Below, one piece after another: positions 2,395-35,074 of a DNA stretch of 50,071 bases. The notes beneath the pieces were generated by a model. That model searched no databases and was not told the DNA's origin. It saw only the letters and a program-made list of their open reading frames with translations. The DNA is from a virus (Duplodnaviria; Caudoviricetes). How positions within the stretch are numbered: position 1 is the first letter of the stretch; the number at the start of each line of letters is the position of its first letter. Location of the stretch: positions 1 to 50,071 of IMG/VR virus record IMGVR_UViG_3300028920_000008, one strand, 5' to 3'. The translations under genes and the position numbers were made by a program.

Positions 2395-3858
2395 TTACTC
2401 CTCTTCGCCCTTCCTATCATCGGTTCCAGCATCCCCAGGCGTAAGCTTCTCTCTTTGATCTTCTATGTCAGCTTGATCGCCCTGCGTTCCTGATTGTGGG
2501 TTTTTCATACCAGAAGCCCTTGATAGAATTTTGACAGCATCAGGATATTTGTCCGCCAATTCTTGAATTGAATTAAGATCCTTGTCTAGTTTTGAAAGCT
2601 CTTCTTCCCATCCAATTTCTGGATTGTTTTCTTCGTGGAATGTGCTTGGAGATTTTGTTAGTGCCTGAATTTCGCCAAGCCCCCTCTTTGATCTTTTGCT
2701 TTGATCCTCAAAAGACACTGGAAGGGTGGTAATCCTATAGTCATCGCCAGTAAACTTGCCAGCAAGAAGAAGCTCTCTATTTATTAACGGCCTTAATATT
2801 TCATGATTTTCTTTTTTTATGATAGACTGTATAGCTCTTTTAAGCACTACTTCTTTTCTAAATAATTCTTCTCCCCCGCTTCCGTTGTTTATCATTCCGC
2901 TAAGTAGGTCTATTGGATAGTCTATCGCAATCGATAGAACCGACATAACCATCATAATATCTTCAACAGAACTCATTACTGTTTTTGTCCCACCAAACTC
3001 GTCTATCTCGTGTTTTCCATCTATGAACAAATCTGTTGTGTTTGATCTTAGCTGTTGACCAACATTCCTCATGTATTGACTGATCAGCGCGGGGTCTGTT
3101 CCAGAGTTTGATTTCCTTCCAACATAATGAACCCGAAGCTTCTGTGCCGCAAGATGTCTCATTATTGCAGAATCTTCAAGTAACATCATCGCCATGTTGA
3201 ATATCTTTATTCCGCTCGCCCACATCGACCAGCCATACCTGAAGAATCTTCCCTTGTACGGATCGTTCCTTCCGTGAATAATCTTCGCCCATCCAAACCA
3301 CGAAATAACATCATCAAACAATCCATTTGATATGTCTTGAACCTGAGCAAAAGATCTGGAGAATGGTGGTGAAAACCTGTCGAGATCGTCTGTGTTCCTG
3401 AGCATTGTTTCTGTTGGCATTGGTATTACATTTGATATGTATGCAACCCTGCCAGGACTGATCGACTCAACAAATTCGAGTTGCCCCCAAAAATCTCCGT
3501 CGCGCAACATCATATAGAGGAATTCTTTCCTCTTTTCTTGATACTCTGTCCTTTTTAGCAGATCGTGTATTATTTTTTTCTTTCTGCTTGGTGCGTCGAT
3601 TTTGACTTCATTTGCTGTTGCATCTTCGCATAGCTTTTCAAGTGCCTTGTCAGCGATGGCACCTTCTCTGCCCATGTCTCGCAAGTCGGAAATCATTTTT
3701 TTTCTGTCAACCTGGCCGACAGTATTGGCTATCTTGTCAAAGCCTTGCATGAGAATTTCTTGGGAAGATCCAAACCCTCTTGCGCTATACTTTTCTACCG
3801 GCCTCTCATCTGTAGCGGTTGGCCTTAGCATTTCTGTGATTCTTTGGACGATGCTCAT
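2395..3858 (-). CDS. Portal protein
   Basis: 487 aa directly after TerL; MLRDGDFW, YGWSMW, MLLEDSAIMRHLAAQKLRVHYVG resemble portal motifs. Confidence 0.8.
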   Translation of the reverse strand: MSIVQRITEMLRPTATDERPVEKYSARGFGSSQEILMQGFDKIANTVGQVDRKKMISDLRDMGREGAIADKALEKLCEDATANEVKIDAPSRKKKIIHDLLKRTEYQEKRKEFLYMMLRDGDFWGQLEFVESISPGRVAYISNVIPMPTETMLRNTDDLDRFSPPFSRSFAQVQDISNGLFDDVISWFGWAKIIHGRNDPYKGRFFRYGWSMWASGIKIFNMAMMLLEDSAIMRHLAAQKLRVHYVGRKSNSGTDPALISQYMRNVGQQLRSNTTDLFIDGKHEIDEFGGTKTVMSSVEDIMMVMSVLSIAIDYPIDLLSGMINNGSGGEELFRKEVVLKRAIQSIIKKENHEILRPLINRELLLAGKFTGDDYRITTLPVSFEDQSKRSKRGLGEIQALTKSPSTFHEENNPEIGWEEELSKLDKDLNSIQELADKYPDAVKILSRASGMKNPQSGTQGDQADIEDQREKLTPGDAGTDDRKGEEE

Positions 3859-5585
3859 TTTCTTATGATTCCCAATCTTTTAGCAGACTGATTTACTAAC
3901 GATTGATATTGCGAAATCGAGAAAGAAGTTATTATTCCGCCAGAAAAAGAACCAGTATCAGCAATTGGTATCGAGTCAAGACCATAGTCCTCTATAATTT
4001 GCTGATACGCAAACGATAGGCAGTCCATCAAGTCGCTTGTATATCCCTGCCCCCACTTCCCTTTGTGGTCAAGTCTTGGCACATTCTGGCCTGATTCTGA
4101 TGGATCTTTTGGAATGTAACATCTTCTTTCGTCCTCAAATGCTGATGATTCTGGTTGTTTGTATGTGCCGTGAACCATGTCAACTTTTGCGAGAGACATC
4201 GATCTTAATATCTTTGCTGTTTCGTTGCTTCCTGGGATCACTTCCCCAAACTCACCGCGGAGTACAGATATATATCCGCTATTGCCACAACATATAATCT
4301 TTGCTCGTTGAAAAACTGCCTTGATTTTTTTGACTCTATCAAGGAATGTATCCTCTAAGTCCATCAGATACTTTCCGTGAGATATTGCCCTTATGTGTTC
4401 TCTGTTTCTTGACACTTGAAGCAGAAGATATGCAGAAAAATCTCCTTCTTCTAGTTGTTTGAACCTATTTGGATCTAGTGCAAGATAAAAGTTTCCGTCG
4501 TGTGTTACGCCATCTTCTGCTAATTGCTTGATTTCCTCATAGTCGAGCCAGTCAATCGAGTCGTCTATTGACTTTGCCCATACCGGCCACGGGAAGAAAA
4601 GACCTTCTTCTGATTGGAATTGCCCTCTAACCTCTCTGTTATATATAGGGGCGGCACCCGCTCTTTGTAGCCTCTCCCTAAAGTCGAGCAGTATATCAAG
4701 GTTGGTAAACTTGTTGTGGTAAGAAGCAAAGTTGTATTTCATCACAGAGTCTCCTGGGTTCTGATACATCTCGTATATCTCGCCAGATTTGCCCCACGGA
4801 GTAGAAGTGATAAATATGCCGCTAAAGCAATTCCCAACCTGAAGTGATGGCCTCATAACCTCATTGATTATACTTGGCGCTCTTGTAAAGCACGCCTCAT
4901 CAAAAAGATAGACAATTGTGCATCTAACATCATCACCATATCTGTTCTTTATTACATCTGCGTGAAAACCGCGAGTTGTTCTTCCGTCAACACCAGCGGT
5001 TCTAATGAATATCTCAGATCCATTTATGAATTTTATATATGTTTTTGTATCTTCGGAAACAAAAGAATACAGCGTTTCATTTGACTCAAGCGCCTGATGT
5101 ATTGAATTTCTCAGAAGAAGCGCTGTATCCTTTGTGTTTCCTACTACAATTACTTTTGTCGGAACGGGCCTGTCGCACTTAAACATCAAAGCCCTAATGT
5201 AAGGCTCTATTGTCGCCTCCATTATCGCTTTCTGCGTGTTCATTATCGCTGACTTTCCAGTTCCACGGCCTGTAATCATCAGCGTAATTGGCTTTTTGCC
5301 CATAAGCGAATTTGATATCACAGCCGACTGATACGGCGTTCCGACAAAAAACGGGCACCCGTTTTTATAATCAAGCTTAGATACATTTGGGCAATCCTTC
5401 TTCATATCACCGGCAGGGCATTTTTCTGATGCGTAATATGCACAGTCCTCGTTTGCGCAATACGCAAGAGGCTTTTTCATGCCAAACGCATCAGCGAATA
5501 TACGCGGATTGTGAAGTTTCACAATATCGCTTATAGCTTCCCTGTCGTTAAATATGAATCCGGATTTAGCCAAACAGCTTTCCAA
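3855..5585 (-). CDS. terL: Terminase large subunit
   Basis: Walker A GRGTGKS, Walker B YLFDEA, ITSTPWG motif, nuclease region LALDP...DFSA...DLMDCL; start codon uncertain. Confidence 0.9.
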   Translation of the reverse strand: MESCLAKSGFIFNDREAISDIVKLHNPRIFADAFGMKKPLAYCANEDCAYYASEKCPAGDMKKDCPNVSKLDYKNGCPFFVGTPYQSAVISNSLMGKKPITLMITGRGTGKSAIMNTQKAIMEATIEPYIRALMFKCDRPVPTKVIVVGNTKDTALLLRNSIHQALESNETLYSFVSEDTKTYIKFINGSEIFIRTAGVDGRTTRGFHADVIKNRYGDDVRCTIVYLFDEACFTRAPSIINEVMRPSLQVGNCFSGIFITSTPWGKSGEIYEMYQNPGDSVMKYNFASYHNKFTNLDILLDFRERLQRAGAAPIYNREVRGQFQSEEGLFFPWPVWAKSIDDSIDWLDYEEIKQLAEDGVTHDGNFYLALDPNRFKQLEEGDFSAYLLLQVSRNREHIRAISHGKYLMDLEDTFLDRVKKIKAVFQRAKIICCGNSGYISVLRGEFGEVIPGSNETAKILRSMSLAKVDMVHGTYKQPESSAFEDERRCYIPKDPSESGQNVPRLDHKGKWGQGYTSDLMDCLSFAYQQIIEDYGLDSIPIADTGSFSGGIITSFSISQYQSLVNQSAKRLGIIRK

Positions 5586-6889: not shown

Positions 6890-7348
6890 CTACTCCTCAA
6901 GAAATGGATCTACAAAAGCAACAATTCTTGGCCTTGTCATAAACGGCCTTATTTTGATATATGCGTTTTGATTTATAGCATCTTGCGTAGTTTTTGTCCT
7001 TGACCCTCCGCCAGATGCTCCAATAGAAAGCTCGTCGTTTATGCAGTATTCGATGTGAATTACTGCTCCAGCTTGATTTGCCCAAAAAACAAGACATCCT
7101 TCTCTTGGCTCTTGCATCGAAAGATCTTTGAATCTCTCGTACAACCCACTTGCAGTCCAATCGCCTTTTCGCGGAAGAATTCCCACGCTTTTTAGTATCT
7201 CTATGCAAAAACCAGAGCAATCAAAACCAGATGGATCGTCCCCTCCCCACAGATATGGCACGCCAAGAAATGACATAGCAACGCTTGTTGCAATTTTTCT
7301 TCTATCCCATTGTTGCATCGTCTGAACCGTTTGTTTCGATGTGTCCAA
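6890..7348 (-). CDS. NlpC/P60 peptidase, probable endolysin
   Basis: GVPYLWGG...GFDCSG catalytic Cys motif, downstream His (VIHI). Confidence 0.9.
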   Translation of the reverse strand: MDTSKQTVQTMQQWDRRKIATSVAMSFLGVPYLWGGDDPSGFDCSGFCIEILKSVGILPRKGDWTASGLYERFKDLSMQEPREGCLVFWANQAGAVIHIEYCINDELSIGASGGGSRTKTTQDAINQNAYIKIRPFMTRPRIVAFVDPFLEE

Positions 7349-9064: not shown

Positions 9065-9790
9065 TTATAATGTCTTGCTTCTCTCAAGCTCTGCGTCAAC
9101 AATCTTCTCTTTAGAACCCCCGCCCATCTCGTTCTCTGTTTCCTGATATGATTTCATCGGCTTTTTGAGCGTGGCAAGGACAGATCTGTTGTGTTGATTT
9201 ATCTCAGACATAGGACTCGCAACCCCACCATCATTATCTTCGCGTGGATCACCTCCATGACCCATCCTTGCCATATCCGCTCTTGCTGCTAGAAACTCCA
9301 TCTGCAATTCGGGAAGTGTCTCTGCTTGCAAAGATGCAGTTTTCAAGAATTCTGCCAACGCATCATTGTCAGGCTCGTCTGGACGTTTATTCCCTGTTAC
9401 GCCCAAATACGACAAAGCCTGATTAATACTTGCTACGGCCCGATTGAATGAAGTTGTCAATTTCGTAAGGCTATCAATAGATGCATCTTCCCCACTTACA
9501 CCGGCGGCGACACTCTTGTAAATTTCCTGAATTGTCAGGACGCCCGTTATAATCAGGTTCGCTTGAAATCGGTCTGCCATCCGGAAAAGTTCATTTTTGG
9601 ATCCTCGTAATTCTACGAGCTGCATCCATTTGATAATGTCCTTCTCGTCAATCTGGATAGTAGCAAGTGCGGATTGGAGAGTCCCCTTCTTCGGTCGCCC
9701 GCGCTTTGCCCCGACACGAGAGCCACTGGAAGAAGTAGTGTCTTTAGGATCTCCGGTTGGATTCTTTCTTGGTCGGCCTGGCTTCGCCAT
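9065..9790 (-). CDS. DNA-binding protein with AT-hook-like motifs; terminase small subunit candidate
   Basis: KPGRPRK and KRGRPKK motifs, helical core; first gene of the late block; likely ATG at 9790. Confidence 0.5.
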   Translation of the reverse strand: MAKPGRPRKNPTGDPKDTTSSSGSRVGAKRGRPKKGTLQSALATIQIDEKDIIKWMQLVELRGSKNELFRMADRFQANLIITGVLTIQEIYKSVAAGVSGEDASIDSLTKLTTSFNRAVASINQALSYLGVTGNKRPDEPDNDALAEFLKTASLQAETLPELQMEFLAARADMARMGHGGDPREDNDGGVASPMSEINQHNRSVLATLKKPMKSYQETENEMGGGSKEKIVDAELERSKTL

Positions 9791-9865
9791 CAGAGGCACT
9801 TCCCTTCTGATGGCAACATCCCAGAAACTCAATATATAGTCAATACTTATCTTCAGTTGAGTGTA

Positions 9866-9885
9866 GCTTATAAGCGCTTATAAGC
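9866..9885. promoter_or_regulatory. Perfect 20-bp palindrome GCTTATAAGCGCTTATAAGC (operator candidate)
   Basis: Seen directly, upstream of the late block. Confidence 0.6.
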
Positions 9886-10166
9886 ATATCTCTCTCGATT
9901 TTTTAGATAATAGATTGTATTCTTGTTATTTTGATCGGATCTTTGTTGTTACTCGATCGGTACATTATTTGTTTATCGGTGGTTATGAGATTAGATGGAG
10001 ATATTGGATGCTAGATGAAAAATTGGTCGAGCGTGTGATGTGGACTAGGTAGAGGAGATCTTTTCCGGTAAAGTGTAAGAAAATACCATATACACCGTTT
10101 TTTACGTTTAAATTGTAAGATATAGTGAAACAAAGTAAGCGCAACAAAAACAACATTTTACGCAGG

Positions 10167-10194
10167 ATGTCGCATAACATATATTATGTTAACT
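10167..10194 (+). other. dif-like XerC/XerD recombination site
   Basis: ATGTCGCATAA-CATATA-TTATGTTAACT versus E. coli dif GGTGCGCATAA-TGTATA-TTATGTTAAAT; 11-6-11 layout, XerD arm 10/11 identical. Confidence 0.8.
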
Positions 10195-10480
10195 AAGTAG
10201 GCTAAGCGCTTTATTTACAACGTGTTATGGTATGGCGTGCGGTATAGTGTAGAATATATGCTATTGTTGTATGATATGGCTAACATGTTGCACTATAATA
10301 CACTATGGCGACACATGGCGTAACTAGTCAACCATACCGCAATAGTCCGTTTTCACCTATGCAATTATTATGCCAAAACAAATAAACCGCCGCTTTTTTC
10401 AAAAAACATGCCAAAAAGACACCTATTTTTAACCGCTTTCGCCGTTTCACGTAAACCGCAAAAAATAGTTTTTTTCTTGC

Positions 10481-10509
10481 TTTACATACCGCTTGCCGTT
10501 TGGTACGCT
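10481..10509 (+). promoter_or_regulatory. Sigma70-type early promoter
   Basis: TTTACA-17 bp-TACGCT with extended -10 TG and an A/T-rich upstream tract. Confidence 0.6.
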
Positions 10510-10592
10510 TTCTATACGTAGAAAAATAGGGAAACCGTTAGATGGTAAGAATTGATTTTTTCCTACTTTCGGGTTAGCGGTTTCATTCCTAT

Positions 10593-10604
10593 TGTTCTTT
10601 GACA
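10593..10604 (+). promoter_or_regulatory. boxA-like antitermination element
   Basis: TGTTCTTTGACA versus rrn boxA TGCTCTTTAACA; follows a leader hairpin (10525-10593). Confidence 0.5.
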
Positions 10605-10698
10605 ACCGAACCGAACCGAAAGCGCCGTTTTATTTAACTAAGCGGTTAACATTAAATTAGTGTACTAGTTTTTTAGTGTTAACTTAGGGGTTAATACA

Positions 10699-11421
10699 AT
10701 GGCGAATAAATTCGACGTTCTACGTGAAGAACGTGAAGAGTTGTTACTTTCTATTGAAGCGCTGAAAGCGTCAACACACAAGAACGCGCCCGCGCTTCTT
10801 AAGAAAGTAGAAACTAAATTAGCAGACGTTGAAAGCGAAATCGAAGCGAACCGCAAGGAATTTGAATTGTCCGAAGTTTGCAATTCGCTTTCCAACGTCA
10901 AAGGGAACCCGTCCGAAGTTTTTGCTTCCGCTTGTAAAAAAGCGGGAATAGATTATAACTGTCGGTTGTACGTTGACTTCACCTTTTCAACGGGAACCGC
11001 GGTTATGGCTGTTAAACCCGCAATTATTCGGACGTCCCGTGAAAGTGTCATTTCGTGGAATGGAATGCCACTTCCGAAAAAATTGTCGGTGAATTTGTCG
11101 GACAACAAAGCGGAAATGACAGAATTCACGCGAACCGCAAGTTTCGATGGAGAAACCGACTTCGCTTCGTGGGAAACCGCTTTCCGCGCTTTGCTTTCCT
11201 GTTATGGCGAATTGCCGAAAGCGTATGATTCCTACAACGTAGACTTTCAAGCACGGCAAGGGAAAAAATCCCGCTTTGAAAGCGCAAGCGCAAGGAACAA
11301 ACTGGAGCGGTTAACACGTTCTACGGTTTCTATGGGTTCATTCTTCGAAGTGACACCTACGGGAAAGCACGGTGAAGCAACCGAAAGCGCAAGCAAAGAA
11401 ACAACCGACAAAAAGCCGTAA
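10699..11421 (+). CDS. First early gene, 240-aa orphan (N-terminal coiled coil)
   Basis: Own promoter, atypical codon usage, downstream hairpin. Confidence 0.8.
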   Translation: MANKFDVLREEREELLLSIEALKASTHKNAPALLKKVETKLADVESEIEANRKEFELSEVCNSLSNVKGNPSEVFASACKKAGIDYNCRLYVDFTFSTGTAVMAVKPAIIRTSRESVISWNGMPLPKKLSVNLSDNKAEMTEFTRTASFDGETDFASWETAFRALLSCYGELPKAYDSYNVDFQARQGKKSRFESASARNKLERLTRSTVSMGSFFEVTPTGKHGEATESASKETTDKKP

Positions 11422-11434
11422 ATGTCAACCGAAC

Positions 11435-11475
11435 AATTGACACAATTAATACGGTTTTTGCCGTTTGTGTCAATT
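11435..11475 (+). terminator. Hairpin after the first early gene
   Basis: AATTGACACA...TGTGTCAATT stem followed by T-rich sequence. Confidence 0.4.
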
Positions 11476-11869
11476 CACGGTTTTGCGGTTGCGGTAGTTT
11501 GTTTCTGGTTGTTTCTTGCGCTTGTTTCGGTTGCTTCTGGTAAAAACCGCAATAGTTAAATTCGGTTGTTTTCGGTTCGGTTTCGGTTGTTTTTGGCACA
11601 GTTTTTTTTGTCTTGCTATTACAAAATATCTGATTTTTCTTTATATAGTGAAACCGTGTGAAAGCGGTTTTTTGTGTTTTAAGCATATAATTAAGTTAAA
11701 AATGATTCGGTTTTACCGCAAAAAAGCGGAAATATCAAAACGGTTTGGCGACAAGGGAAAAAGAGAATCTTTTGCTACCATTGGAAATATATCGAGTTTT
11801 TCGTGGGGTTTTTGGGCGGTGGCTGTTTTGTTGTGTTTCGAAATCTGAAAACTTGAAAGGAGGTGAAGT

Positions 11870-12061
11870 GTGGAAAAGATATCAAATTCTCGCGAGCCTC
11901 GACGCGGCGACAATGTGATGGTGCCGAACGGTGAAGAAAAGCCGATATTTGGCACTATTGAAAACATTGACGTTGATTCGAAGGTAGCGATAATTAAATT
12001 AGAGGGATACGGATACCGTGTCTCTATTCCGGTTGTTGCCGTTACACAGATATTAGTGTAG
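11870..12061 (+). CDS. Small KOW/SH3-like protein
   Basis: RRGDNVMV...FGTIENID...VAIIKL; AAAGGAGG RBS. Confidence 0.55.
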   Translation: MEKISNSREPRRGDNVMVPNGEEKPIFGTIENIDVDSKVAIIKLEGYGYRVSIPVVAVTQILV

Positions 12062-12089
12062 CGGTTTCTTTTTGTCATGGAGTTTTGAT

Positions 12090-12476
12090 ATGAATCCGGA
12101 TGAAAGAAAGCTACTGGAAAGATGTGAGCAAGGCGACCCACAAGCAATTATGGATTATCTTGCTACACCGCACCGGCCAGATGTTGTTGTGCTTTTCAAG
12201 ACTATCTTTGGATATTCAATTCAAGCACACTATTCTCGTGCATCTGGTGCAACGTATGATACGTGTTCACTGTCGTGCAAACCGAAACTTTCGTGGGAAC
12301 CGACAGATGGTCACGACCGCGTACTCTGGACGGAATCGAGCGGGAAACCATATCTGTTTCCGACAGACGCGGAGCTGATGAATCCTGACCGCGTGATTAC
12401 TGACAGCTATTATATCATTCGCAACGGCAAAGTCCTTGAGTATGATGAAAGACGTGCGGTTGAGGGTTCAATATGA
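12090..12476 (+). CDS. Hypothetical protein
   Basis: GGAG RBS before ATG 12090. Confidence 0.65.
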   Translation: MNPDERKLLERCEQGDPQAIMDYLATPHRPDVVVLFKTIFGYSIQAHYSRASGATYDTCSLSCKPKLSWEPTDGHDRVLWTESSGKPYLFPTDAELMNPDRVITDSYYIIRNGKVLEYDERRAVEGSI

Positions 12477-12548
12477 ACATCAAAGAGATGTTCTTCTCGT
12501 GGATTGCTTCTATTGTTTGTTGTTTACTTAAAGCATTGGAGGCGATTG

Positions 12549-12686
12549 ATGGATAGGTTTACGATGCGTACAAGGCTTGTGGCACTGGGAATCATATTGT
12601 CGGCATGTTTGATGCCTTTCAATTGGTTCGGCTCTCTGCTCCTACTTGTAACGTGGATGATAGTTACCTTCACAGTGGAGGGATAA
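12549..12686 (+). CDS. Small membrane protein
   Basis: GGAGG RBS; two hydrophobic stretches. Confidence 0.5.
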   Translation: MDRFTMRTRLVALGIILSACLMPFNWFGSLLLLVTWMIVTFTVEG

Positions 12687-12979
12687 TGAAAGACACAACA
12701 AAGTCATCATTCCAGAGAATACTGGATGAAGATGGCAACGTGTGGCGGTATGCTAAAGAGCCGATCATCGACAGCTCTGGATATGGAAACTGTTCAGAGT
12801 GTAATAGATGTGACTGCGACGATACTACCGTACAATGTGATGTTCAGTTTGACCCAAGCGGTCATCACTGTCCGGGTTTAAGGGAAGCGTATATCTTGTG
12901 GATGTATGGAAAGCCACTCATAACGCTTTGCCCTAGATGCTTCAACCTAAACGTAAGAAACGGGATGAAGCATTACTAA
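12686..12979 (+). CDS. Cys-rich putative zinc-binding protein
   Basis: CSEC...C...CPRC motifs; GGAGGG RBS. Confidence 0.55.
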   Translation: MKDTTKSSFQRILDEDGNVWRYAKEPIIDSSGYGNCSECNRCDCDDTTVQCDVQFDPSGHHCPGLREAYILWMYGKPLITLCPRCFNLNVRNGMKHY

Positions 12980-13752: not shown

Positions 13753-14055
13753 GTGGACAATGACTCTCCGCTGAAAAAAAGGATATGGATCACCCGTGAT
13801 TCAAAAGCGCTGCCATATTCCGTTTGGGAAGATGGTAGGCCCGAATGGGGTGATGGATCGCAAAGATGGGGATACTATAAAACTTCGATGTCAAGTGAGA
13901 AAAGAGTTCTCACGATGAAGGGAGATAGGCTGCCATCTTTTGTGATGTACCTGTCCTCAGAAGATGCTGCGAATTTCTTCGGCGTAAGCGGGATGGAAGG
14001 AGGCAGCGATTCAATTGTAGAGATGGAGGTTTCAATCAAAGTCATTGGAGGATGA
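13753..14055 (+). CDS. Hypothetical protein
   Basis: GTG start after AAGGGGGTGA. Confidence 0.55.
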   Translation: MDNDSPLKKRIWITRDSKALPYSVWEDGRPEWGDGSQRWGYYKTSMSSEKRVLTMKGDRLPSFVMYLSSEDAANFFGVSGMEGGSDSIVEMEVSIKVIGG

Positions 14056-14464
14056 CTTGAAACAATCAAACGTGTTCAAGATCGATGCTCTCATTCAAAA
14101 GATTGAGAACAAGATTAAGCCAGATCTCGACAAACTGGAGGAGCTGAAGATAGCCCGCAAGGTTATTTCCGATCTTCCAGATACCGTCGAAATGCCTGGC
14201 TCAAAGACAGTCCCGCCGCCATCAAAAAGGCGGCGAAAAAAGAGATACGGTAGCAAGAGCGTTCTGTCCTACGTGAGCGCTCTTATATCAAATCGTATAC
14301 TCATCGGTTCTTTCAACGCGAAAGATGTTCGTCGAAAAGTCAAGAATACTTACGGGTATAACGTAAATATCAAGACAATCGGCGTTGCACTTTCTCGTTT
14401 GTGCAAGGAAGGCAGAATCAATCGCGTTGGTCGCGGATTGTATCGCATTCCGATTGATAAGTAA
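14045..14464 (+). CDS. Winged-helix DNA-binding protein
   Basis: N-terminal coiled coil, basic linker, C-terminal TIGVALSRLCKEGRINRVGRGLY. Confidence 0.7.
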   Translation: MEDDLKQSNVFKIDALIQKIENKIKPDLDKLEELKIARKVISDLPDTVEMPGSKTVPPPSKRRRKKRYGSKSVLSYVSALISNRILIGSFNAKDVRRKVKNTYGYNVNIKTIGVALSRLCKEGRINRVGRGLYRIPIDK

Positions 14465-22522: not shown

Positions 22523-24115
22523 ATGTGCGACGTAGTAGAAAAATATTTCCCAAAGCAACCGCCATTTAACGGAAAACCACGCGATGCCCAGGGAGATGTG
22601 ATAGAGCGCATGTATCAGGCCGTCGTTGGGGGTAAGCGATTCTTAGTAATCGCTGCCCCCACCGGAGCTGGTAAAAGCGCGATACTATACACTCTTGCAA
22701 ATGCTATTTGCGATCTGAATGGCGTTGACCACAGACTTGATGGAAGCGGTGCGATATTCACAACGTCACAAAAAGTCTTGCAAGATCAGTATGAAGAAGA
22801 TTTTCAAGACATGTTTGTAATGAAGGGCAGGGGGAACTATCCATGCAAACAGCCAGTCGAGTCAGAAGAATCGAACAACTGTGATGCAGGGATATGCCTG
22901 TTCAGAGAAACAAAACCAGACTGCGATACCTCTTGTCCATACAAGCAAGCAAAAATACAAGCACAACTTAGCAAGTTGATTGTAACAAATTTTGCTTACT
23001 TTATCGGAGAAAGCAACAACGTAAACGCCTTTGGAAAGAGGCGTGTTTTGATGATAGATGAAGCGCACAACATAGAGTCTGCATTGATGAGCTATGTTGA
23101 GTGTGGCATATCAGAGGCCGGCCTGAAGTTTTGCGGGCTGGAGAGGATAGTGCCAATATTTGATCGCTTCGGCCAGTACGAAGATTTTCTTGTCCAGCTA
23201 TCAAAAGATGCAAAAGAAAGAGCAATTGACCTTAAAGGCGAGATGGAGCAAAATCCTAGCACTGTCTTTACCGACAAGGCAAAGCAATACGATAGGGCCA
23301 TGAAGCTTTTTCAGAAAACATCTTTCATAAGATTTCACGCAGAAACATGCAAGTGGATACCAGACGCCGATGCAGACAAAAGGAAGGTTGTTTTTAAGCC
23401 GATAAATGTAAGCCCATTTGCAAGAAATCTTGTGTTTGCATTTGGCGACATCAACATTCTTTCTTCTGCCACAATCAGCAAGAGCTACGTCAAAAACTGT
23501 CTTGGAATCCCAGATAGCGACTTCGAATATTTCGAGGTTCCATCTACGTTTCCCGTAGAAAACAGGCCAATCTACGCCATGAACGCTGGAAAGATGGGCT
23601 ACAGATATCTTGAGAAATCGCTTCCAAATATAGTCAGGAAAATAGATGCGATTATAGATCAATTCCCCGACAGCAAAGGGATAATACATGCTACTTCATA
23701 CAAGATAGCAAAGTATGTCTCGTTGCACTCAAGACATGCTGAAAGATTTATATCGCACAACTCTGTAGATAGGATAGAGAGGCTAAGGGATCATATGAAA
23801 TCTCCAGAGCCAACAATACTTCTGTCTCCATCGATGACAGAAGGTGTAGACCTGAAGGGCGATCTTTCTCGCTTCCAGATTATTGTAAAAATCCCATACG
23901 CTTCACTTGGGGACAAACAGATAAAAGCCAGAATGGAAGAAGATAAAATCTGGTATGCCAATCTCGCCGCCGTCACCCTGATGCAAGCATATGGAAGATC
24001 AATAAGGAGCAAATCTGATACGGCGATTACTTTTGTTCTTGACTCTGCATTCAAGTATTTTGTAAAAAGCAACGATCATCTCTTTTGCAATTGGTTTAAG
24101 GAGGCAATTAGATGA
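22523..24115 (+). CDS. DinG/Rad3(XPD)-family SF2 helicase
   Basis: APTGAGKS, LQDQY, KGRGNYPC with Cys cluster, IDEAH, LSSAT, EGVD, QAYGRSIR. Confidence 0.9.
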   Translation: MCDVVEKYFPKQPPFNGKPRDAQGDVIERMYQAVVGGKRFLVIAAPTGAGKSAILYTLANAICDLNGVDHRLDGSGAIFTTSQKVLQDQYEEDFQDMFVMKGRGNYPCKQPVESEESNNCDAGICLFRETKPDCDTSCPYKQAKIQAQLSKLIVTNFAYFIGESNNVNAFGKRRVLMIDEAHNIESALMSYVECGISEAGLKFCGLERIVPIFDRFGQYEDFLVQLSKDAKERAIDLKGEMEQNPSTVFTDKAKQYDRAMKLFQKTSFIRFHAETCKWIPDADADKRKVVFKPINVSPFARNLVFAFGDINILSSATISKSYVKNCLGIPDSDFEYFEVPSTFPVENRPIYAMNAGKMGYRYLEKSLPNIVRKIDAIIDQFPDSKGIIHATSYKIAKYVSLHSRHAERFISHNSVDRIERLRDHMKSPEPTILLSPSMTEGVDLKGDLSRFQIIVKIPYASLGDKQIKARMEEDKIWYANLAAVTLMQAYGRSIRSKSDTAITFVLDSAFKYFVKSNDHLFCNWFKEAIR

Positions 24116-24798: not shown

Positions 24799-27363
24799 TT
24801 GATATCTTACACCATACAGGGTGTAGATGTTCTTGAAGAAAAGTCTGTGTCTGGAGATAATGAATCTCTTTGCACTTGTCCTTCTTGCGGAAGACAAAAA
24901 CTGTATATTAATAAATCTGGCGGAGAGAAAGATGGGCTTTTCGAATGCAAAGTCTGCGGACTCTCTGGAAAAGTAGAAAACCACAATAGCACTTCGCGAA
25001 AAAAGAGCATCAAGCCAGAAAAGAAAAAAGACCAAATAAGCGATGAGGTCGTACACAGATATATAGACAAGCTTGTAAACTCATGCAAGATTAATGAGTT
25101 TGTCAGATCCTATTTCTCAAAAAAGAAGATACCAATTGGATTGGTGGAACAATACAGAATAGGATATTCTGAAGAGCTACCAGATTACGATGATATGAAA
25201 ATCGCAAGGCGGTTGGGCCTTGTGAATGAGAAGCTAAATAACCGCTTTTACAAGCGAATTGTTATGCCGGTTATGGCGAAGGGGCGTTGGGTGTATTTAA
25301 CGTCAAGGGCTGTTGGTATTTCAAGTCCAGCGAAGTATATGGACATAAGTCTAAAGAAAAGAATATTTCGCGAGGATGCAATAGATAGTAATAACAGAAT
25401 ATTTTTATGCGAGGGCATACCAGACACGCTATCAATGATAGCAAATGGATATGATTCTGCAATAGGAATACTTGGCTCTCAAGTTTTCAAGGAAGATTAT
25501 AAGGAAAAGTTAAGAAACAAAGAAATCATTATTTGCTATGACAATGATTTTGCCGGAAGAAGAAGCACTGTTCATATCGCGAACATAATGTCTGCCGCTG
25601 GATCTAGGGTATCATCAATAACACTTGGGGAAGGGCAGGATGTATCTGATTTCTTTGCCGCAAATAAGGGCAAAAAACTAGAGATAGTCCCAATAGAAAA
25701 GATAGAAAAAGAGCAAAAGATACTCCTGTTCTCCAGGGCAGAGCCAAATCTGTTGGTGTATTCGTTTGGTCATTATGAAATCAGGGCAAGTGACATCACG
25801 CCAAGAAAGGGATCTCTAAGGGCTACGGTGTCGGTATTTAATAGTACAAAAATACTTGCATCGTCAAATTTTGATCTTACTTCAATGAGGCTTCGCGCAA
25901 CATACGCAAAAGAGTTTGTTGCAAATGCAAGCGATGTCGCAGAGCCAGAAGCAAAATCGATGTTGATGGATCTTGCAAACGCAATAAAGCAAAATCTGCA
26001 AGAACAGGAAGAAACAGCAGAAGAAAAACAAGTATATATAATGAGCGATAAGGAGAAGGAAAGCGCACAAAAGATGTTGTGCGACCCGCTCCTACTATAT
26101 AGGATAAAACGCGCACTTGATAGACAGGAGGTTGTTGGGGAGGATATAAACAAACTGTTGTTATATTTGATATACACATCTCGCCTAATGAAAAAGCCGA
26201 TATCGTGTCTAATCAAAGGACTCTCAAGTTCTGGAAAAACATATTTGATGGGCAAGGTTTTGAGCCTTATTCCACCAGAGGGCCACATCACAATCCAACA
26301 GGCAACTGGCCGTGCGCTGTATTATATGGGAGAGCTTGATTTAAAACACAAGATGATAATTATAGGCGAGATGCACGGAGCAGAAGAAACACAATATTCT
26401 TTGCGAGAGGCACAGGATGGAATTGGTGAGGGCGACCTGATTATTGCTACCGTAGAAAAGGATCCTGATACAAACCAGAATCAAACGGTAATAAAGAGGG
26501 TTGCTGGCCCGTGCGGATTTGTTTCATCGACAACTTCGGTTGAAATTAATCCAGAAAACGAGACAAGAAACTTTTCTATATATGTAAAAATAGATGAAAA
26601 CAAAGTAAAAGATACTGCATCAACGCTTGTAGACAAATATCTTGGCAAGTCTAACGTATTATCGCAAGATGAACTTCTGTTGTTTCACAACGCACAGAGA
26701 AGCCTACAAACAAATATGATGGTGCGTATTCCTTATATAAAATACGTGCTAGATAGATTTCCGTCGTCGCCAATCAGGGTCATGCGGGACAGGGTTAGAT
26801 TTTGTGTGTTGCTTGAGACAATAGCAATAATACATCAGTTCCAAAGAGAAATATCAGAAGATGAAGATGGACAAAGATGGATAACAGCTTCAATATCTGA
26901 TTACAACATAGCACTCGCCTTGATGAACGAGATCTTGGTTGAGACAATCTATGAATTGCCAGCCAAGTCAAGAGAGATATATAGTGTTGTTGTTGAGATG
27001 AGAGATGAATTTGTAGAAAACTCAGACACGTCGTCCATAATAGACGATGAAGATAAGGCAAAATTATTCAACGCAACATATAAGCAAATAGGCGAAAGAA
27101 TGAACATGAAGGCGGCTGATATCAGAAGGTGGTCAAAGCCGCTTTTTGAGGCCGGCTATTTCGAATATGCCGATACTGGAGAAAAAAACTCTGGAGGAAG
27201 GGGGAAGCAAACAAAATTGATTCCTGTTGACAAGGAATTTTACCACGGATTCCTTCCTTCTCCAGATGAGATTGCAAATTATTTCGGCATGTTTGATGAG
27301 ACACTATACAATCCAATAACAGGAGAAACAAGAGAAATAGAAAGGATGGAGGTAGACCTTTGA
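24799..27363 (+). CDS. Primase-helicase (Zn finger + DnaG-type TOPRIM + P-loop ATPase)
   Basis: CPSC...CKVC, FYKRIVMP, LCEGIPD, CYDNDFAG, GLSSSGKT. Confidence 0.88.
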   Translation: MISYTIQGVDVLEEKSVSGDNESLCTCPSCGRQKLYINKSGGEKDGLFECKVCGLSGKVENHNSTSRKKSIKPEKKKDQISDEVVHRYIDKLVNSCKINEFVRSYFSKKKIPIGLVEQYRIGYSEELPDYDDMKIARRLGLVNEKLNNRFYKRIVMPVMAKGRWVYLTSRAVGISSPAKYMDISLKKRIFREDAIDSNNRIFLCEGIPDTLSMIANGYDSAIGILGSQVFKEDYKEKLRNKEIIICYDNDFAGRRSTVHIANIMSAAGSRVSSITLGEGQDVSDFFAANKGKKLEIVPIEKIEKEQKILLFSRAEPNLLVYSFGHYEIRASDITPRKGSLRATVSVFNSTKILASSNFDLTSMRLRATYAKEFVANASDVAEPEAKSMLMDLANAIKQNLQEQEETAEEKQVYIMSDKEKESAQKMLCDPLLLYRIKRALDRQEVVGEDINKLLLYLIYTSRLMKKPISCLIKGLSSSGKTYLMGKVLSLIPPEGHITIQQATGRALYYMGELDLKHKMIIIGEMHGAEETQYSLREAQDGIGEGDLIIATVEKDPDTNQNQTVIKRVAGPCGFVSSTTSVEINPENETRNFSIYVKIDENKVKDTASTLVDKYLGKSNVLSQDELLLFHNAQRSLQTNMMVRIPYIKYVLDRFPSSPIRVMRDRVRFCVLLETIAIIHQFQREISEDEDGQRWITASISDYNIALALMNEILVETIYELPAKSREIYSVVVEMRDEFVENSDTSSIIDDEDKAKLFNATYKQIGERMNMKAADIRRWSKPLFEAGYFEYADTGEKNSGGRGKQTKLIPVDKEFYHGFLPSPDEIANYFGMFDETLYNPITGETREIERMEVDL

Positions 27364-27727: not shown

Positions 27728-27821
27728 TGTATCACTTGGGGGAAAATTTGAATTTTTGTGGAGATTTTTACCGCAAGATATCTCAGATGATAGCCAAATC
27801 TGGAATGGGCATCTATCTAAA

Positions 27822-28200
27822 CTTTGTGAATTGTTTCACAGAAAACCGTTCAAACCGTTCAAATCGGCTGTACGGTTTAGTTAGGTGCAACTAACTTATA
27901 TATATGTTTGATATATATAGGATTAACAGTTTGTGAATTGTTTCACAGAAAACCGTTCAAAAGATCCGGGAGGTTCAAGGGTATAGTTAGAGAAGCGAAA
28001 AATAACCCATCCTCTTTCCAGAGATTTTTGGCAATCGGGGGAAAAAACTTAACTCGTTATTTTTCAACGACCTTCCAGTTGCCCCCGCTTGATACCGTGA
28101 ACGGTTTAACAGTTTTGTTAACTTGTTTGTTTTCAATGACTATAAACCGTACAAGCGATTTGAACGGTTTGAACGGTTTTCCGTGAAAAGATTCACAAAG
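27822..28200. repeat. Probable replication origin: 58-bp inverted repeats, 32-bp direct repeat, AT-rich spacer
   Basis: 27822-27879 versus reverse complement of 28143-28200 (53/58); 27930-27961 repeats 27823-27854; AACCGTTCA iterons; just downstream of the primase-helicase. Confidence 0.75.
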
Positions 28201-28307
28201 TCGGGCGGGTTCGGCGCTCAACTAGAGAATCCGCGTTCAATATGCGTTGTTAACTGACTTGTTAACATAGATGGGGTTTTGATGAACAAACCAAAGGAAA
28301 GGTTGAG

Positions 28308-28547
28308 ATGTTGAAACCTATCATTAGATGGGGAGTTATGTGGAGTCACAAGAATAGAAAGGATGGTGCTTGCAAGCATATTATTTGCGAGAACGGGATA
28401 CCGCCGTTGTTTAGAACGCGAAAAGAGGCCAGAGAATTTATAGCCAAAACCTACGGTTACATAAAAGATAGTCCGACATTAAGAAAAGAACCTCACGGAT
28501 GGCGTATGCCCGTTCCTATTAGGGTAGAGATAAGACGCTGGTCTTAA
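28308..28547 (+). CDS. Hypothetical protein
   Basis: LFRTRKEAREFI...P.RVEI. Confidence 0.65.
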   Translation: MLKPIIRWGVMWSHKNRKDGACKHIICENGIPPLFRTRKEAREFIAKTYGYIKDSPTLRKEPHGWRMPVPIRVEIRRWS

Positions 28548-28582
28548 TGACCGCGCCCACCCGTGGATGAAAGGAGAGAACG

Positions 28583-28960
28583 ATGGACGCAGTAAACGCT
28601 GCTGGCTTCTACAACAGGGAAACTATCGAGTCTTTGCGCGAGCTTCACCCGAGCGCTGTGAACGTAACATGCTTGATCGACTCGCATGAAGCTATTCGCG
28701 CCGAGCTTGAAGCGCGTGGAAGGGATCTGGATGAGTCTGAAATTGATATAGTCAATATCCGTGCCAAGCTCAAGGCGAAGGACAAACAACTCAAGCGGGC
28801 GATTGAGATTGCAAGGGAGGCGCTTAGCCCGAGGCCAGAATGTGAACACGACAACGTTGGTATATGTTCTGCTTGCCGCTCTCTGTTTTCGTGGGGAGAA
28901 AGAACACGAGATAGAAAGCTATCCGAACTCGACGAGATGGAAAAGGACGGTGGAATATGA
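28583..28960 (+). CDS. Modular paralog 1
   Basis: IRAKLKAKDKQLKRAIEIAR...SELDEMEKDGG. Confidence 0.7.
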   Translation: MDAVNAAGFYNRETIESLRELHPSAVNVTCLIDSHEAIRAELEARGRDLDESEIDIVNIRAKLKAKDKQLKRAIEIAREALSPRPECEHDNVGICSACRSLFSWGERTRDRKLSELDEMEKDGGI

Positions 28961-29175
28961 CCACGGGGCTGTGTCCGCGAAAGCGGTGGGCATGGGAGTT
29001 GCCGGTTCGCAAAGTACACGCGGGCGAAGTCAAACGCAAGCGTTGGTGATTGAGGCAACACACAGCACGGGCGCGGGGATTGTCCGAGTGCAACGGGCAG
29101 CGCAGAGACATTTGCACCCGCAGTGATGCGCGATTCACAGAAGCGCACCCGCGCCCACCCGTGATGAAAGGAGAG

Positions 29176-29511
29176 ATGATGAGCGAACGGACTCAAGAGC
29201 AAAAACAGTACGATTGTCCGACGTGCCAACGCGCAGACGCCGCAATCGCTATTTCGTCTGCGTGCAGCCTGTCGGTCACAGATGCGGCGATTCTGTTGCG
29301 CGATCTAGGTGGGTGGGCTGACCTTGAGCGCGAAATATCCACACTCCGCGCCAAGCTCGAAGCGAAGGACAAATATCTCAAGCGGACGATTGAGATTGCG
29401 AGAGTTGGCCTGGAAAAGTGGGCAGAAGAAACAAGTGTTTACGAACACGGGCTTGCGGCGGCAAAAATGCAATCCGAACTCGACGCGATGGAAAATGGCG
29501 GTGGAGAATGA
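29176..29511 (+). CDS. Modular paralog 2
   Basis: AAAGGAG RBS; LRAKLEAKDKYLKRTIEIAR...SELDAMENGGGE. Confidence 0.7.
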   Translation: MMSERTQEQKQYDCPTCQRADAAIAISSACSLSVTDAAILLRDLGGWADLEREISTLRAKLEAKDKYLKRTIEIARVGLEKWAEETSVYEHGLAAAKMQSELDAMENGGGE

Positions 29512-29993
29512 AAACACCAAAAGAGCTTGAATGCGCCATTAGGCAATATAGACACAATGACGATAATACAAAACTATTGCCAGGAGATGTCGGGCAATTT
29601 GTTATTGGGCTTGACCACGATAAGACTGTCGTGGTGTTCAACACCATCTACGCCAAGCTCGAAGCGTGCGAGAATGAGCTTGCCGAAATGGATGCGAGTT
29701 TTGAGCTTTACGACCAATCAATACGAGAGCTAACGACGTTCTATCACAAGGAACACCCAAAAGAAAAAGAGGAGCGGCGGTACCCTAGAACATCGAAGTT
29801 GGTCGCATGGGCGGTGGCGATAATAGAGCGAGAGCGCAAAGACAAGCGACTGGCAATTGAGATTGCAAAGAAACTAGTTGGACATATTCGGAAGATACCC
29901 GTTGGAATTTCAACTGTTGAGTTTTCGGACTTCAATGAAGTAAACAGACTGCGGGATCAACTCGACGCAATGGAAAAGGACGGTGGAGAATGA
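29508..29993 (+). CDS. Modular paralog 3
   Basis: ATGA overlap; YAKLEA...KDKRLAIEIAK...QLDAMEKDGGE. Confidence 0.7.
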   Translation: MKTPKELECAIRQYRHNDDNTKLLPGDVGQFVIGLDHDKTVVVFNTIYAKLEACENELAEMDASFELYDQSIRELTTFYHKEHPKEKEERRYPRTSKLVAWAVAIIERERKDKRLAIEIAKKLVGHIRKIPVGISTVEFSDFNEVNRLRDQLDAMEKDGGE

Positions 29994-30292
29994 GCATACC
30001 AAAACAAAGTGATTTTTTTGGCATCCCTGTTTTTGTCAGCGAATATGTGGACAATGTTTATCTTATTGCAAAGAACATAGAGCAAATTGACGCTATCAGT
30101 GCGAGCCTGAACGTAGAAAATGAAAATGCCAAACTCCGCGCCAAGCTAGATGCGAGGGACAAGTTCCTCAAGCGGGCGATTGAGATTGCTAGGTGGCGCG
30201 GTGAAGCCATTCCGATAGAAGCGTTTGAAAGTAGCCGAATCAGGCGAGAGAACTTCGAACTTGATAACATGGAAAAGGAGCTGTCAAAATGA
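29990..30292 (+). CDS. Modular paralog 4
   Basis: LRAKLDARDKFLKRAIEIAR...ELDNMEKE. Confidence 0.7.
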   Translation: MSIPKQSDFFGIPVFVSEYVDNVYLIAKNIEQIDAISASLNVENENAKLRAKLDARDKFLKRAIEIARWRGEAIPIEAFESSRIRRENFELDNMEKELSK

Positions 30293-33066: not shown

Positions 33067-33837
33067 TTGTCAAGGAGAATTTTATTGCCGTTTAGAAAAA
33101 TTGATTCAGATTTCTCTGAAGAAATCTTTTATCGCGAAAAAAACTGCATTATTATACGGGGAGACTGCAAAGAGGTTGTAAAGAAACTATCCGGTATAGT
33201 TAAAATTGATTTGATATTAACAGACCCGCCATACGAGTTTCAACCAAAGGGCGGCGGTGTATTTAAGGATGACTCAAACATGCAAGAAACGCTTGATGCT
33301 GGAACGCATGAGTTTGATTTCGAGTCCCATATCCCGCCAATAATAGAGTCGATGCGCAAAACAACTGGAATGGTGAATGCGTATTTCTTTTGCAATAAAG
33401 CGTTGGTGTATAAGTATATATCGCTGGCAGAAAAACTTGGGTTGACATATGATTTGTTGATACTAAGAAAGAAAAGATTCAGACCGGCGCACAACGTACA
33501 CTACGCACCGGATCTTGAGTATGTGATATTTATGAAATCGCCTGGCGCTAAATTTAACGGAGACATAAAAGGATGGGATGGTCTGTATTCAAAGGTGTAC
33601 GACCAAGAGGTTGAGATAAAAAATCAAATGCACCCAAATCAAAAGCCTCTTGGGATTTTAAAAAAATATATATCTATTAGCACAGAACCTGGCGATGTTG
33701 TCATTGATCCATTTTGTGGTTCTGGTCAGACTATGCTCGCCGCCAGAGAGCTTGATAGATTTTCTATTGGAGTAGAGAAGAATTCCATGTTTGCAGATGT
33801 CGCAAGAACAGTCCTTTCACAGATGTCGCTGTTTTAA
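33067..33837 (+). CDS. DNA N6-adenine/N4-cytosine methyltransferase, beta class
   Basis: DLILTDPPY precedes HPNQKP and DPFCGSG. Confidence 0.92.
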   Translation: MSRRILLPFRKIDSDFSEEIFYREKNCIIIRGDCKEVVKKLSGIVKIDLILTDPPYEFQPKGGGVFKDDSNMQETLDAGTHEFDFESHIPPIIESMRKTTGMVNAYFFCNKALVYKYISLAEKLGLTYDLLILRKKRFRPAHNVHYAPDLEYVIFMKSPGAKFNGDIKGWDGLYSKVYDQEVEIKNQMHPNQKPLGILKKYISISTEPGDVVIDPFCGSGQTMLAARELDRFSIGVEKNSMFADVARTVLSQMSLF

Positions 33838-34302: not shown

Positions 34303-34429
34303 CTCGTTTAGTTTCAACAGCTTGCTCAAAATTCAAATATAAGCGCGTAAAATATTAGTGCCCTACCAACGAATCAAGGTGGTCTATTATGCGTGCTTAT
34401 ATTCGCTTATAAAGAGGAGGATTTGGGCC

Positions 34430-35074
34430 GTGAAAACGATCGGAATTGACATTGGCAGAGCAAACACGGGATTGGTAATTTTTGACAATGATGAAAAGTC
34501 CATCGTTGCAAATGCCACAATTCAATTACCAATAGCGAAGGTTCGCAAGGTTTCTCCGTTTAATGCGACTTCGCACAGGCTTTATTTTCTACAGCAGAAT
34601 CTGAAAACTTTTATACTTGGCCCTGGTGGATTCAAGAAGGGCGATAAGGCTCTCGCGGTTATTGAGGACTATGCCTATGGCGATCAAAGGATGACGCTTG
34701 AGCAATTCAGAAAAATGGACAAAATGTCACTGGAGGTGGGTGAAGCCCACGGGATTGTGTATGCAGCACTAGCAGAGATTGGAATACCGATGATTAAGGT
34801 GGCCCCATCTCAAATGAAATATTTTATTGCCGGCGATGGCCAATGTGAAAAAACACAGATAATCAAAACAATGCACAAAACATATAGGGTTCCGCTTGAC
34901 GATGACCATCAATATGATGCACTTGCCCTGTGTCACATGGGGAGATATTATATCATATTTTGCTCAAGCCCAGGAGTAATAAAAGAGGGCACGTACGAAT
35001 ACAACACAATGATCAACATCGCATTTGACATGAGACACGCGGCGGTATCTAAAATATTCGGGCTAAAGCTGTAG
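34430..35074 (+). CDS. RuvC-like Holliday junction resolvase
   Basis: IGIDIGRANTG, VIEDY, EAHG, PSQMK, DHQYDALAL; GTG start after GAGGAGG. Confidence 0.85.
   Translation: MKTIGIDIGRANTGLVIFDNDEKSIVANATIQLPIAKVRKVSPFNATSHRLYFLQQNLKTFILGPGGFKKGDKALAVIEDYAYGDQRMTLEQFRKMDKMSLEVGEAHGIVYAALAEIGIPMIKVAPSQMKYFIAGDGQCEKTQIIKTMHKTYRVPLDDDHQYDALALCHMGRYYIIFCSSPGVIKEGTYEYNTMINIAFDMRHAAVSKIFGLKL

Follow-up and report, generated by a model that had tools for sequence, protein, structure and literature searches.

A compositional island with a dif-like site and a conserved gene at the head of the rightward gene block of an uncultured tailed phage

Layout and word composition of the island

The window, meaning the whole stretch of 50,071 nucleotides (nt) analysed here, is the entire IMG/VR record IMGVR_UViG_3300028920_000008 of a tailed phage (Caudoviricetes). 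We describe a compositional island at positions 10061-11760 that coincides with a self-contained cassette around a gene for a 240-amino-acid (aa) protein. Leftward genes extend from 9832 across the contig junction to 35063, and rightward genes from 10699 to about 35074. Because gene directions part at 9832/10699, the island sits at the divergence point and heads the rightward early/replication block.

All features of the cassette are given for the + strand. A block at its left edge (10047-10084), which includes AGTGTAAGAAAAT, is conserved by alignment with positions 1-38 of L001, a related metagenome contig described below. It is followed by a dif-like site of 28 bp (10167-10194; 11-nt arm, 6-nt centre, 11-nt arm) and by a promoter-like site at 10271-10299, a consensus match at 10 of 12 positions, whose second hexamer and next bases are kept in L001. 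The putative promoter would yield a leader of about 390 nt that is rich in AACCG. AACCG repeats in the 5′ flank (10597-10628) are complementary to CGGTT repeats in the 3′ flank (11560-11590), and this leader-trailer complementarity has a duplex energy of −55.7 (z −3.2 versus dinucleotide shuffles). Between the two flanks lie the gene for the 240-aa protein (10699-11421) and, directly after its stop codon, an open reading frame (ORF) for a hydrophobic, predicted membrane peptide of 45 aa (11422-11559). The segment had initially been annotated as holding a single gene, and this second, conserved small ORF has to be added. A terminator-like hairpin (11650-11671) with a following T run (to 11680) is likewise a consensus match only. 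Rfam gave only three sub-threshold matches at chance level.

The island is characterized by the scarcity of six words, GAT/ATC, CAG/CTG and GAG/CTC, which are 4- to 10-fold depleted, symmetrically across the strands and in coding and non-coding DNA alike. Compared with the expectation from the rest of the genome, we counted 3 GAG (24.8 expected), no CTC (19.9), 4 CAG (22.8), 8 CTG (25.2), 4 ATC (41.5) and 10 GAT (44.6), while GATC (8.7 expected), AGCT (6.1) and GGCC (4.0) are absent. This reproduces all counts of the initial annotation, which had listed about three GAG, no CTC, GGCC or AGCT, and scarce CAG, CTG and ATC. CCG, GTT, TTT, CGG, ACC and GGT are commoner than expected, CpG amounts to 70 per kb in the island versus 43.8, and A and T runs are in excess in the cassette DNA. 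The island has 9-24 six-word copies per kb, compared with a median of 103 and a minimum of 64 in the backbone (288 windows). By part, the values are 9.4 for the upstream non-coding DNA, 20.7 for the gene and 23.6 for the downstream DNA, where base composition predicts 75-90. In the sliding-window k-mer comparison that had been proposed as a check, the chi-square over 1700 nt ranked 10.1-12.0 kb first in the genome, both for 3-mers (426, median 51) and for 4-mers (999, median 167), and the depletion is highly significant. The island also has the lowest k-mer diversity (rank 1 of 483 windows by four measures).

The left edge of the island is sharp (10058/10061). The DNA to its left (9933-10060) has the normal vocabulary, with GATC at 9933, 9938, 9955 and 10057 and 13 copies of the six words within 9987-10058, and the following 640 nt hold 6 copies. 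On the right, normal six-word density is back from about 11760. The island ends at about 11.70-11.76 kb, earlier than the fading after about 11.9 kb that had first been described. The gap between the GATC copies at 10057 and 12763 (2706 nt) is the longest among the 248 GATC of the genome, followed by one of 1418 nt; a gap of at least 2706 nt arose in 0.035% of 20,000 random site placements (P about 3.5 × 10⁻⁴). The reported lack of GATC from 10061 to 12762 and its four copies within 9930-10060 are hence both confirmed. The right part of this gap, 11761-12762, comprises three small early ORFs (+) and lies outside the island: it is free of GATC, yet has 90.8 six-word copies per kb and an otherwise normal vocabulary. 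Taken alone its lack of GATC is only weakly significant, since zero copies over about 1 kb at 5.1 per kb have a chance of about 0.006.

Two motifs are enriched. AACCG/CGGTT occurs 34 times in the 1.7-kb island, 8 times in an origin-like region of 0.6 kb and 60 times in the other 47.6 kb, corresponding to 20 copies per kb in the island and 1.26 per kb outside the island and 27.7-28.3 kb. Its orientation is biased, with AACCG upstream and CGGTT downstream. AAAGCG/CGCTTT has 18 copies in the island, and an excess of AAAGCG is partly due to a conserved protein motif. Within the window gene both motifs exceed the expectation from codon permutation (z 4.2 and 6.5); in L001, AACCG shows no enrichment (z 0.7). 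We found no regular iterons of at least 15 nt, only loose families of 12-24 nt with 65-93% identity and irregular spacing, and no regular arrays of 17-22-bp direct repeats flanking a Rep gene, as in iteron-plasmid replicons. Helical phasing of A-tracts in the cassette and a clear polarity of AGCGG-type motifs were not detected either.

The origin-like region (27730-28300) is non-coding and located just after the primase gene. It contains AAACCGTTC-type repeats, 8 AAACCG/CGGTTT, direct and inverted repeats of about 30 nt and an AT-rich core, and is, judged by these elements, probably a replication origin. Outside the island, 200-nt windows reach island-like scores only at 28.0-28.3 kb.

Some explanations of the word pattern were considered and abandoned. 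Avoidance of a protospacer-adjacent motif does not fit, as several candidate words are enriched instead. The signature of a context-specific deaminase was rejected because the gene favours C- and G-ending codons. Avoidance of FtsK-orienting or Chi-like motifs was dropped for want of a test or of fit.

A second cassette and word avoidance across codon junctions

L001 is a metagenome contig of 2051 nt that encodes a homologue with 49% identity to the 240-aa protein. Among 228 fetched loci, a relative of any window ORF of at least 80 aa was found only in L001. Its layout is the same as in the window, with left-edge block, dif-like core, a leader of about 400 nt, the gene and a small hydrophobic ORF. 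This ORF (1346-1453) overlaps the stop codon of the gene and is homologous to the 45-aa ORF of the window, with an LPF...G pattern common to both. A perfect inverted repeat of 23 nt brackets the gene pair of L001 (duplex z −6.2), its sequence being unlike that of the window flanks. Swapped leader/trailer pairs from window and L001 lack complementarity (z −0.1 and −1.3), and by this comparison the complementary 5′ and 3′ flanks are lineage-specific. Non-coding DNA of the two phages is mostly unalignable, and the next gene rightward in L001 is unrelated to any gene of the window. The three parts of the L001 cassette nevertheless have only 28-38 six-word copies per kb, compared with 83.6 in the right flank of 311 nt. 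The L001 gene holds 3 GATC, which is above the permutation prediction; freedom from GATC is therefore not conserved, and avoidance specific to GATC was ruled out.

Codon usage of the 240-aa gene is unlike that of the rest of the genome, as the initial annotation had stated: CGN codons account for 12 of 13 Arg codons, while 74% are AGR in reference genes, and 23 of 25 Glu codons are GAA. We permuted synonymous codons among positions with the same amino acid, which keeps the protein and the codon usage of the gene, and counted the six words that span codon junctions (3000 permutations). The window gene has 7 such words compared with 30.0 ± 3.9 expected, and the L001 homologue 16 compared with 36.3 ± 4.1; in both cases none of the 3000 permutations was as low. 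This avoidance was absent in all eight backbone control genes. Codon-context z-scores of the window gene and the L001 gene are correlated (r = 0.60, 32 trinucleotide pairs).

A source of this vocabulary was not found among the fetched bacterial and viral loci. The 4-mer profile of the island has a Jensen-Shannon (JS) value of at least 0.082 to each of the fetched loci that reach 3 kb or more, while the same loci come as near as JS 0.017-0.02 to the phage backbone. None resembles the island as donor or host by 4-mers or codon usage, the best fit to the codon usage of the gene being −1.09 per codon versus −1.16 for uniform usage.

Together, these data argue for an ongoing, cassette-specific and strand-symmetric constraint on the words of double-stranded DNA rather than a leftover of foreign composition. 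We read the constraint as ongoing from its upkeep in two lineages at 49% protein identity. The initial annotation had named, as a case that would refute its view, that the gene is a recent import from a genome with this composition throughout. Junction avoidance and persistence at 49% identity speak against a recent import; a common donor lineage is still compatible with the data, because only two sequences exist.

Encoded products, the dif-like site and possible roles of the cassette

HMMER, run exhaustively over 1.84 billion representatives, found 12 matches to the 240-aa protein at E ≤ 0.001, and the gene is thus no longer the orphan it was first taken for. The homologues come from metagenome contigs, the longest of 52.6 kb. 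One match (P0010, 742 aa, a short multi-stretch match) was omitted from the alignment, which combines the window protein with the other 11 (24-70% identity). With this alignment AlphaFold reached a predicted local distance difference test (pLDDT) value of 83.4, compared with 47.1 without it. Because of the 12 matches and the rise in pLDDT from 47 to 83, we regard the protein family as real. The model confidently predicts an N-terminal helical hairpin (coiled-coil, about residues 1-82) and an alpha/beta domain (about 88-220).

The 240-aa protein belongs to no Pfam or PHROG family, and a Pfam/PHROG search of its relatives linked at most two of the 12 members to the same family, with an E value no better than 0.23. 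Foldseek with the model, a check proposed earlier, gave no match at E ≤ 0.001 in PDB and BFVD, the best hit of a profile search of PDB sequences had E 0.28, and the ESM Atlas provided no usable match. No DNA-binding domain and no match to a Rep family were detected. A recognisable anti-defence protein was not found in the Pfam, PHROG, PDB and BFVD searches (PADLOC was not searched). Anti-defence DNA mimics are acidic, and the isoelectric point (pI) of the 240-aa protein is near neutral (6.78). A complex prediction for the protein and the 45-aa peptide scored 0.00; as controls were not run, this is evidence neither way.

The dif site that had been noticed next to the gene could be verified as a dif-like site, with an exact pattern match at 10172-10192 within the 28 bp. 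The 18 specified dif bases recur in at least 120 bacterial genome contigs from many phyla and in 107 viral contigs, and Desulfobulbales-type dif sites are among the many that match the core. In both phages, gene and site are separated by about 500 nt. The window and L001 (about 113-140 in the latter) carry the 28-bp core in opposite orientations, while the flanks on both sides are collinear. We infer that this inversion within collinear flanks suits an orientation-free use of the site, for example as attachment site, more than it suits a resolution site, whose accessory sequences would be fixed. A six-frame search of the complete genome with PF00589 and PF00239 gave no match to a tyrosine or serine recombinase, and XafT-type DUF3653 (PF12375) had no match in the genome at E ≤ 1.

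The combination of a dif-like site with an element lacking its own recombinase recalls Xer-exploiting elements and XafT, as they are presented in PMC6744903 and PMC9226527, and plasmid multimer-resolution sites, and both phages have a conserved, uncharacterised gene at a distance of about 500 nt from the site. Differences from the systems treated in these papers are the 50-kb tailed phage, the lack of DUF3653, the inversion of the site core between two relatives and the lack of an integrated copy among our searches.

We tentatively favour, at somewhat less than an even chance, the view that the island is a conserved establishment cassette under a cassette-specific constraint on DNA words. Sequence comparison suggests its conservation in a small uncultured phage lineage, as the promoter-proximal head of the rightward early block. 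It would combine a host-type dif-like Xer site with one bicistronic transcription unit for the 240-aa protein, of predicted coiled-coil and alpha/beta structure, and a predicted membrane peptide of about 40 aa. As the establishment unit of the phage, the cassette would work on newly entered, unprotected DNA. Host XerCD recombinases may act at the dif-like site, the phage having no recombinase of its own, and the 240-aa protein could be a take-over factor or a helper. DNA-recognising systems across the host range would have the avoided words as their targets.

Several points weigh against this view. The roles of the protein and of the dif-like site are inferred only, and promoter and terminator rest on consensus matches. 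L001 is the single relative with DNA (2051 nt), with a flank of 311 nt, and does not share the freedom from GATC. The junction result would look alike if both phages had drawn on a donor lineage with the signature throughout. The loss of whole trinucleotides is wider than would fit any one target known. Taken together, palindromes show no depletion: the island has 102 of 4 bp (92.5 expected) and 24 of 6 bp (17.5 expected), several being enriched (GTTAAC 4, ACGT 13, GCGC 11, TTAA 16), and general avoidance of restriction palindromes was ruled out on these grounds. Of the initial claim that the segment is purged of target words of restriction-modification (RM) or similar systems, a significant and maintained word depletion has stood, while the undepleted palindromes and the GATC copies of L001 speak against its RM part. 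Long-tailed phages usually inject their DNA in one step, and with such entry a region-limited purge gives little protection. The family profile gave no integrated copy in the bacterial genomes searched (0/5 and 0/401), which is evidence neither way.

A more specific form of the establishment reading, to which we assign only a small chance, takes the site as a dif mimic in an integrase-less long-tailed phage and the 240-aa protein as the first of a novel family of Xer activators or accessory factors distinct from DUF3653, with words purged for a function on naked, newly entered DNA before the methylase of the phage and other protection take effect. The XafT paper, in the text available from it, leaves room for activation factors from other superfamilies (PMC6744903). 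If this form is true, the dif-mimic cassette would extend region-limited avoidance of defence beyond the paradigms of T7 and T5.

Among other explanations, we considered that the cassette is a moron, i.e., a laterally acquired independent unit whose vocabulary is the mutational signature of a donor, with no selection on words. Morons are defined by their own signals and a composition unlike their neighbours (PMC3594210), and the cassette resembles those of temperate phages treated there in its place between gene blocks, where it appears to form a unit of its own with promoter-like and terminator-like signals (consensus matches), and in a composition and codon usage that differ from the flanks. 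The different right-flank genes of window and L001 also fit. However, a fading import would lose its contrast and junction avoidance, and here both are kept at 49% protein identity despite unalignable non-coding DNA. Moreover, the left flank is common to both phages, the 4-mer profile is unmatched among fetched loci of 3 kb or longer, and the codon usage of no locus fits much better than uniform usage. We consider a moron of this kind somewhat unlikely. The idea of the initial annotation that 10061 onward is the first-injected end of the virion DNA, with RM targets purged and an anti-defence or take-over protein made early, appears unlikely. It draws on the word avoidance, which is real, strand-symmetric and maintained, on the position of the 240-aa gene as first of the early block and on the very sharp left edge at 10058/10061, given which a DNA end at about 10.06 kb is possible. 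The codon choice of the gene (C-ending pyrimidine codons, CGN, GAA and AAA), of a kind that generally looks translationally optimised, also fits. In T7-like phages, type I restriction is decided by motif absence confined to the leading region, as stated in PMC12455610. For plasmid leading regions the consistent signal given in PMC13478746 is codon adaptation and not palindrome depletion, which matches the codon choice of the 240-aa gene and not the depletion in non-coding DNA. With the leading regions that carry anti-defence genes in the accounts of PMC12455610, PMC11541004 and PMC13478746, the cassette shares its place as first unit of an early block, a distinct composition, optimised-looking codons and the lack of certain short motifs. 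Unlike in those accounts, whole trinucleotides rather than defined sites are depleted, the phage is long-tailed, as marked by its tape-measure protein, and the cassette is probably not terminal by gene order. A lambda-like synteny (lysis genes at 6.9-7.7 kb, three small ORFs, terminase) presumably puts the packaging start near 5.6-6.9 kb. This is about 4 kb off the cassette, which with such a start would be preceded on entry by the GATC-rich DNA at 6.9-10.06 kb. The undepleted palindromes, a methylase encoded by the phage itself and a protein that has no match in the four databases and, with its pI, does not look like an acidic mimic, further argue against a leading end.

Two more alternatives concern the repeats and the small ORF. 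AACCG/CGGTT and AAAGCG/CGCTTT could be binding sites of the 240-aa protein, serving autoregulation or, as in plasmids, the control of replication or partition in connection with the repeats at 27.7-28.3 kb, and the depleted words would then be a by-product. The concentration of AACCG/CGGTT in island and origin-like region, the excess of both motifs over codon permutation and the biased orientation of AACCG and CGGTT are consistent with such a binding field. The lack of regular iterons, phased A-tracts and a detectable DNA-binding domain is not, and neither is the share of the conserved protein motif in the AAAGCG excess. In addition, AACCG is not enriched in L001, whereas the word avoidance is common to both phages, and we regard a binding field as quite improbable. 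By analogy to hok-type systems or two-gene exclusion operons, the membrane peptide might be a toxic or exclusion effector, whose translation would depend on coupling with the upstream gene and on gating by long-range pairing of the 5′ and 3′ ends of the mRNA. Hok-type mRNAs fold back from 5′ to 3′ and encode a small membrane peptide, and they resemble the cassette in their complementary ends and in a small hydrophobic ORF coupled to an upstream ORF. This idea is compatible with the significant complementarity and with the conserved hydrophobic ORF that adjoins the stop codon in both phages. The upstream ORF is, however, a conserved 240-aa protein here, there is no sequence relationship, and no antisense RNA or family match was found, with nothing near threshold in Rfam. 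It also leaves vocabulary and dif-like site unexplained, and we regard an addiction or exclusion cassette as very unlikely.

Compositional islands in phages are usually dismissed as recent imports, and here the contrast is kept at 49% identity, which points to a constraint tied to the function or the exposure of this piece of DNA. If the constraint reflects exposure to DNA-targeting systems of the host, islands of this kind might serve to recognise, by sequence alone, the functionally leading or establishment DNA of phages that are not in culture, and might lead to novel counter-defence or Xer-helper proteins. A host-type dif site in a recombinase-less tailed phage is a further case beside those which a non-exhaustive literature search gave for phages that are filamentous or otherwise non-tailed, for islands and for plasmids.

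Genome setting

The window is a single contig with an exact terminal direct repeat of 127 nt (1-127 = 49945-50071). We read this repeat as an assembly overlap, the genome being circular or terminally redundant. In the collection, the record is listed as 100% complete, and ORFs at both contig ends fit one circular map. A long-tailed type is indicated by the predicted tape-measure protein (41439-44873, −). The leftward genes further include those for a head-morphogenesis-like protein (2395-3858, −), the large terminase (3855-5585, −) and an NlpC/P60 lysin (6890-7348, −). On the + strand, a helicase (22523-24115), the primase (24799-27363), an N6/N4 DNA methylase (33067-33837; Pfam E 2 × 10⁻²³) and a RuvC-like nuclease (34358-35074) are encoded.

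Three metagenome runs from marine sediment, one of them possibly the source, contain contigs near-identical to the phage DNA. Among the assembled contigs of four runs, no starts or ends of the DNA and no joints or variants of the cassette were visible. No close relatives were retrieved from phage records by blastn with 9800-12800, nor any tblastn match for the 240-aa protein; for the large terminase the sole tblastn match in these records was a Halogranum virus with 28% identity. Scans of IMG/VR with the 240-aa protein, the terminase, a 255-aa protein and two alignments gave no confirmed relative. An insertion-sequence-like element was rejected as an explanation of the cassette: there is no transposase family, and the tiny protein family occurs only on metagenome contigs, the largest of which (35-52.6 kb) are phage-sized.

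The 255-aa protein (9065-9832, −) opens the leftward block. It has GRP-type basic motifs near its N-terminus and matches no family. A contig from a wetland RNA run covers only 9542-9767, with 2 differences. In the divergent promoter region (9866-9887), the palindrome GCTTATAAGC is present in two adjoining copies and looks like an operator. In the rightward block, an early protein of 139 aa (14045-14464, +) matches the family of AbiEi antitoxin-type regulators with its C-terminal residues 115-136 (E 2.3 × 10⁻⁶). The second strongest 3-mer outlier in the genome (chi-square 247) is at 28501-30200, where GC reaches up to 0.55.

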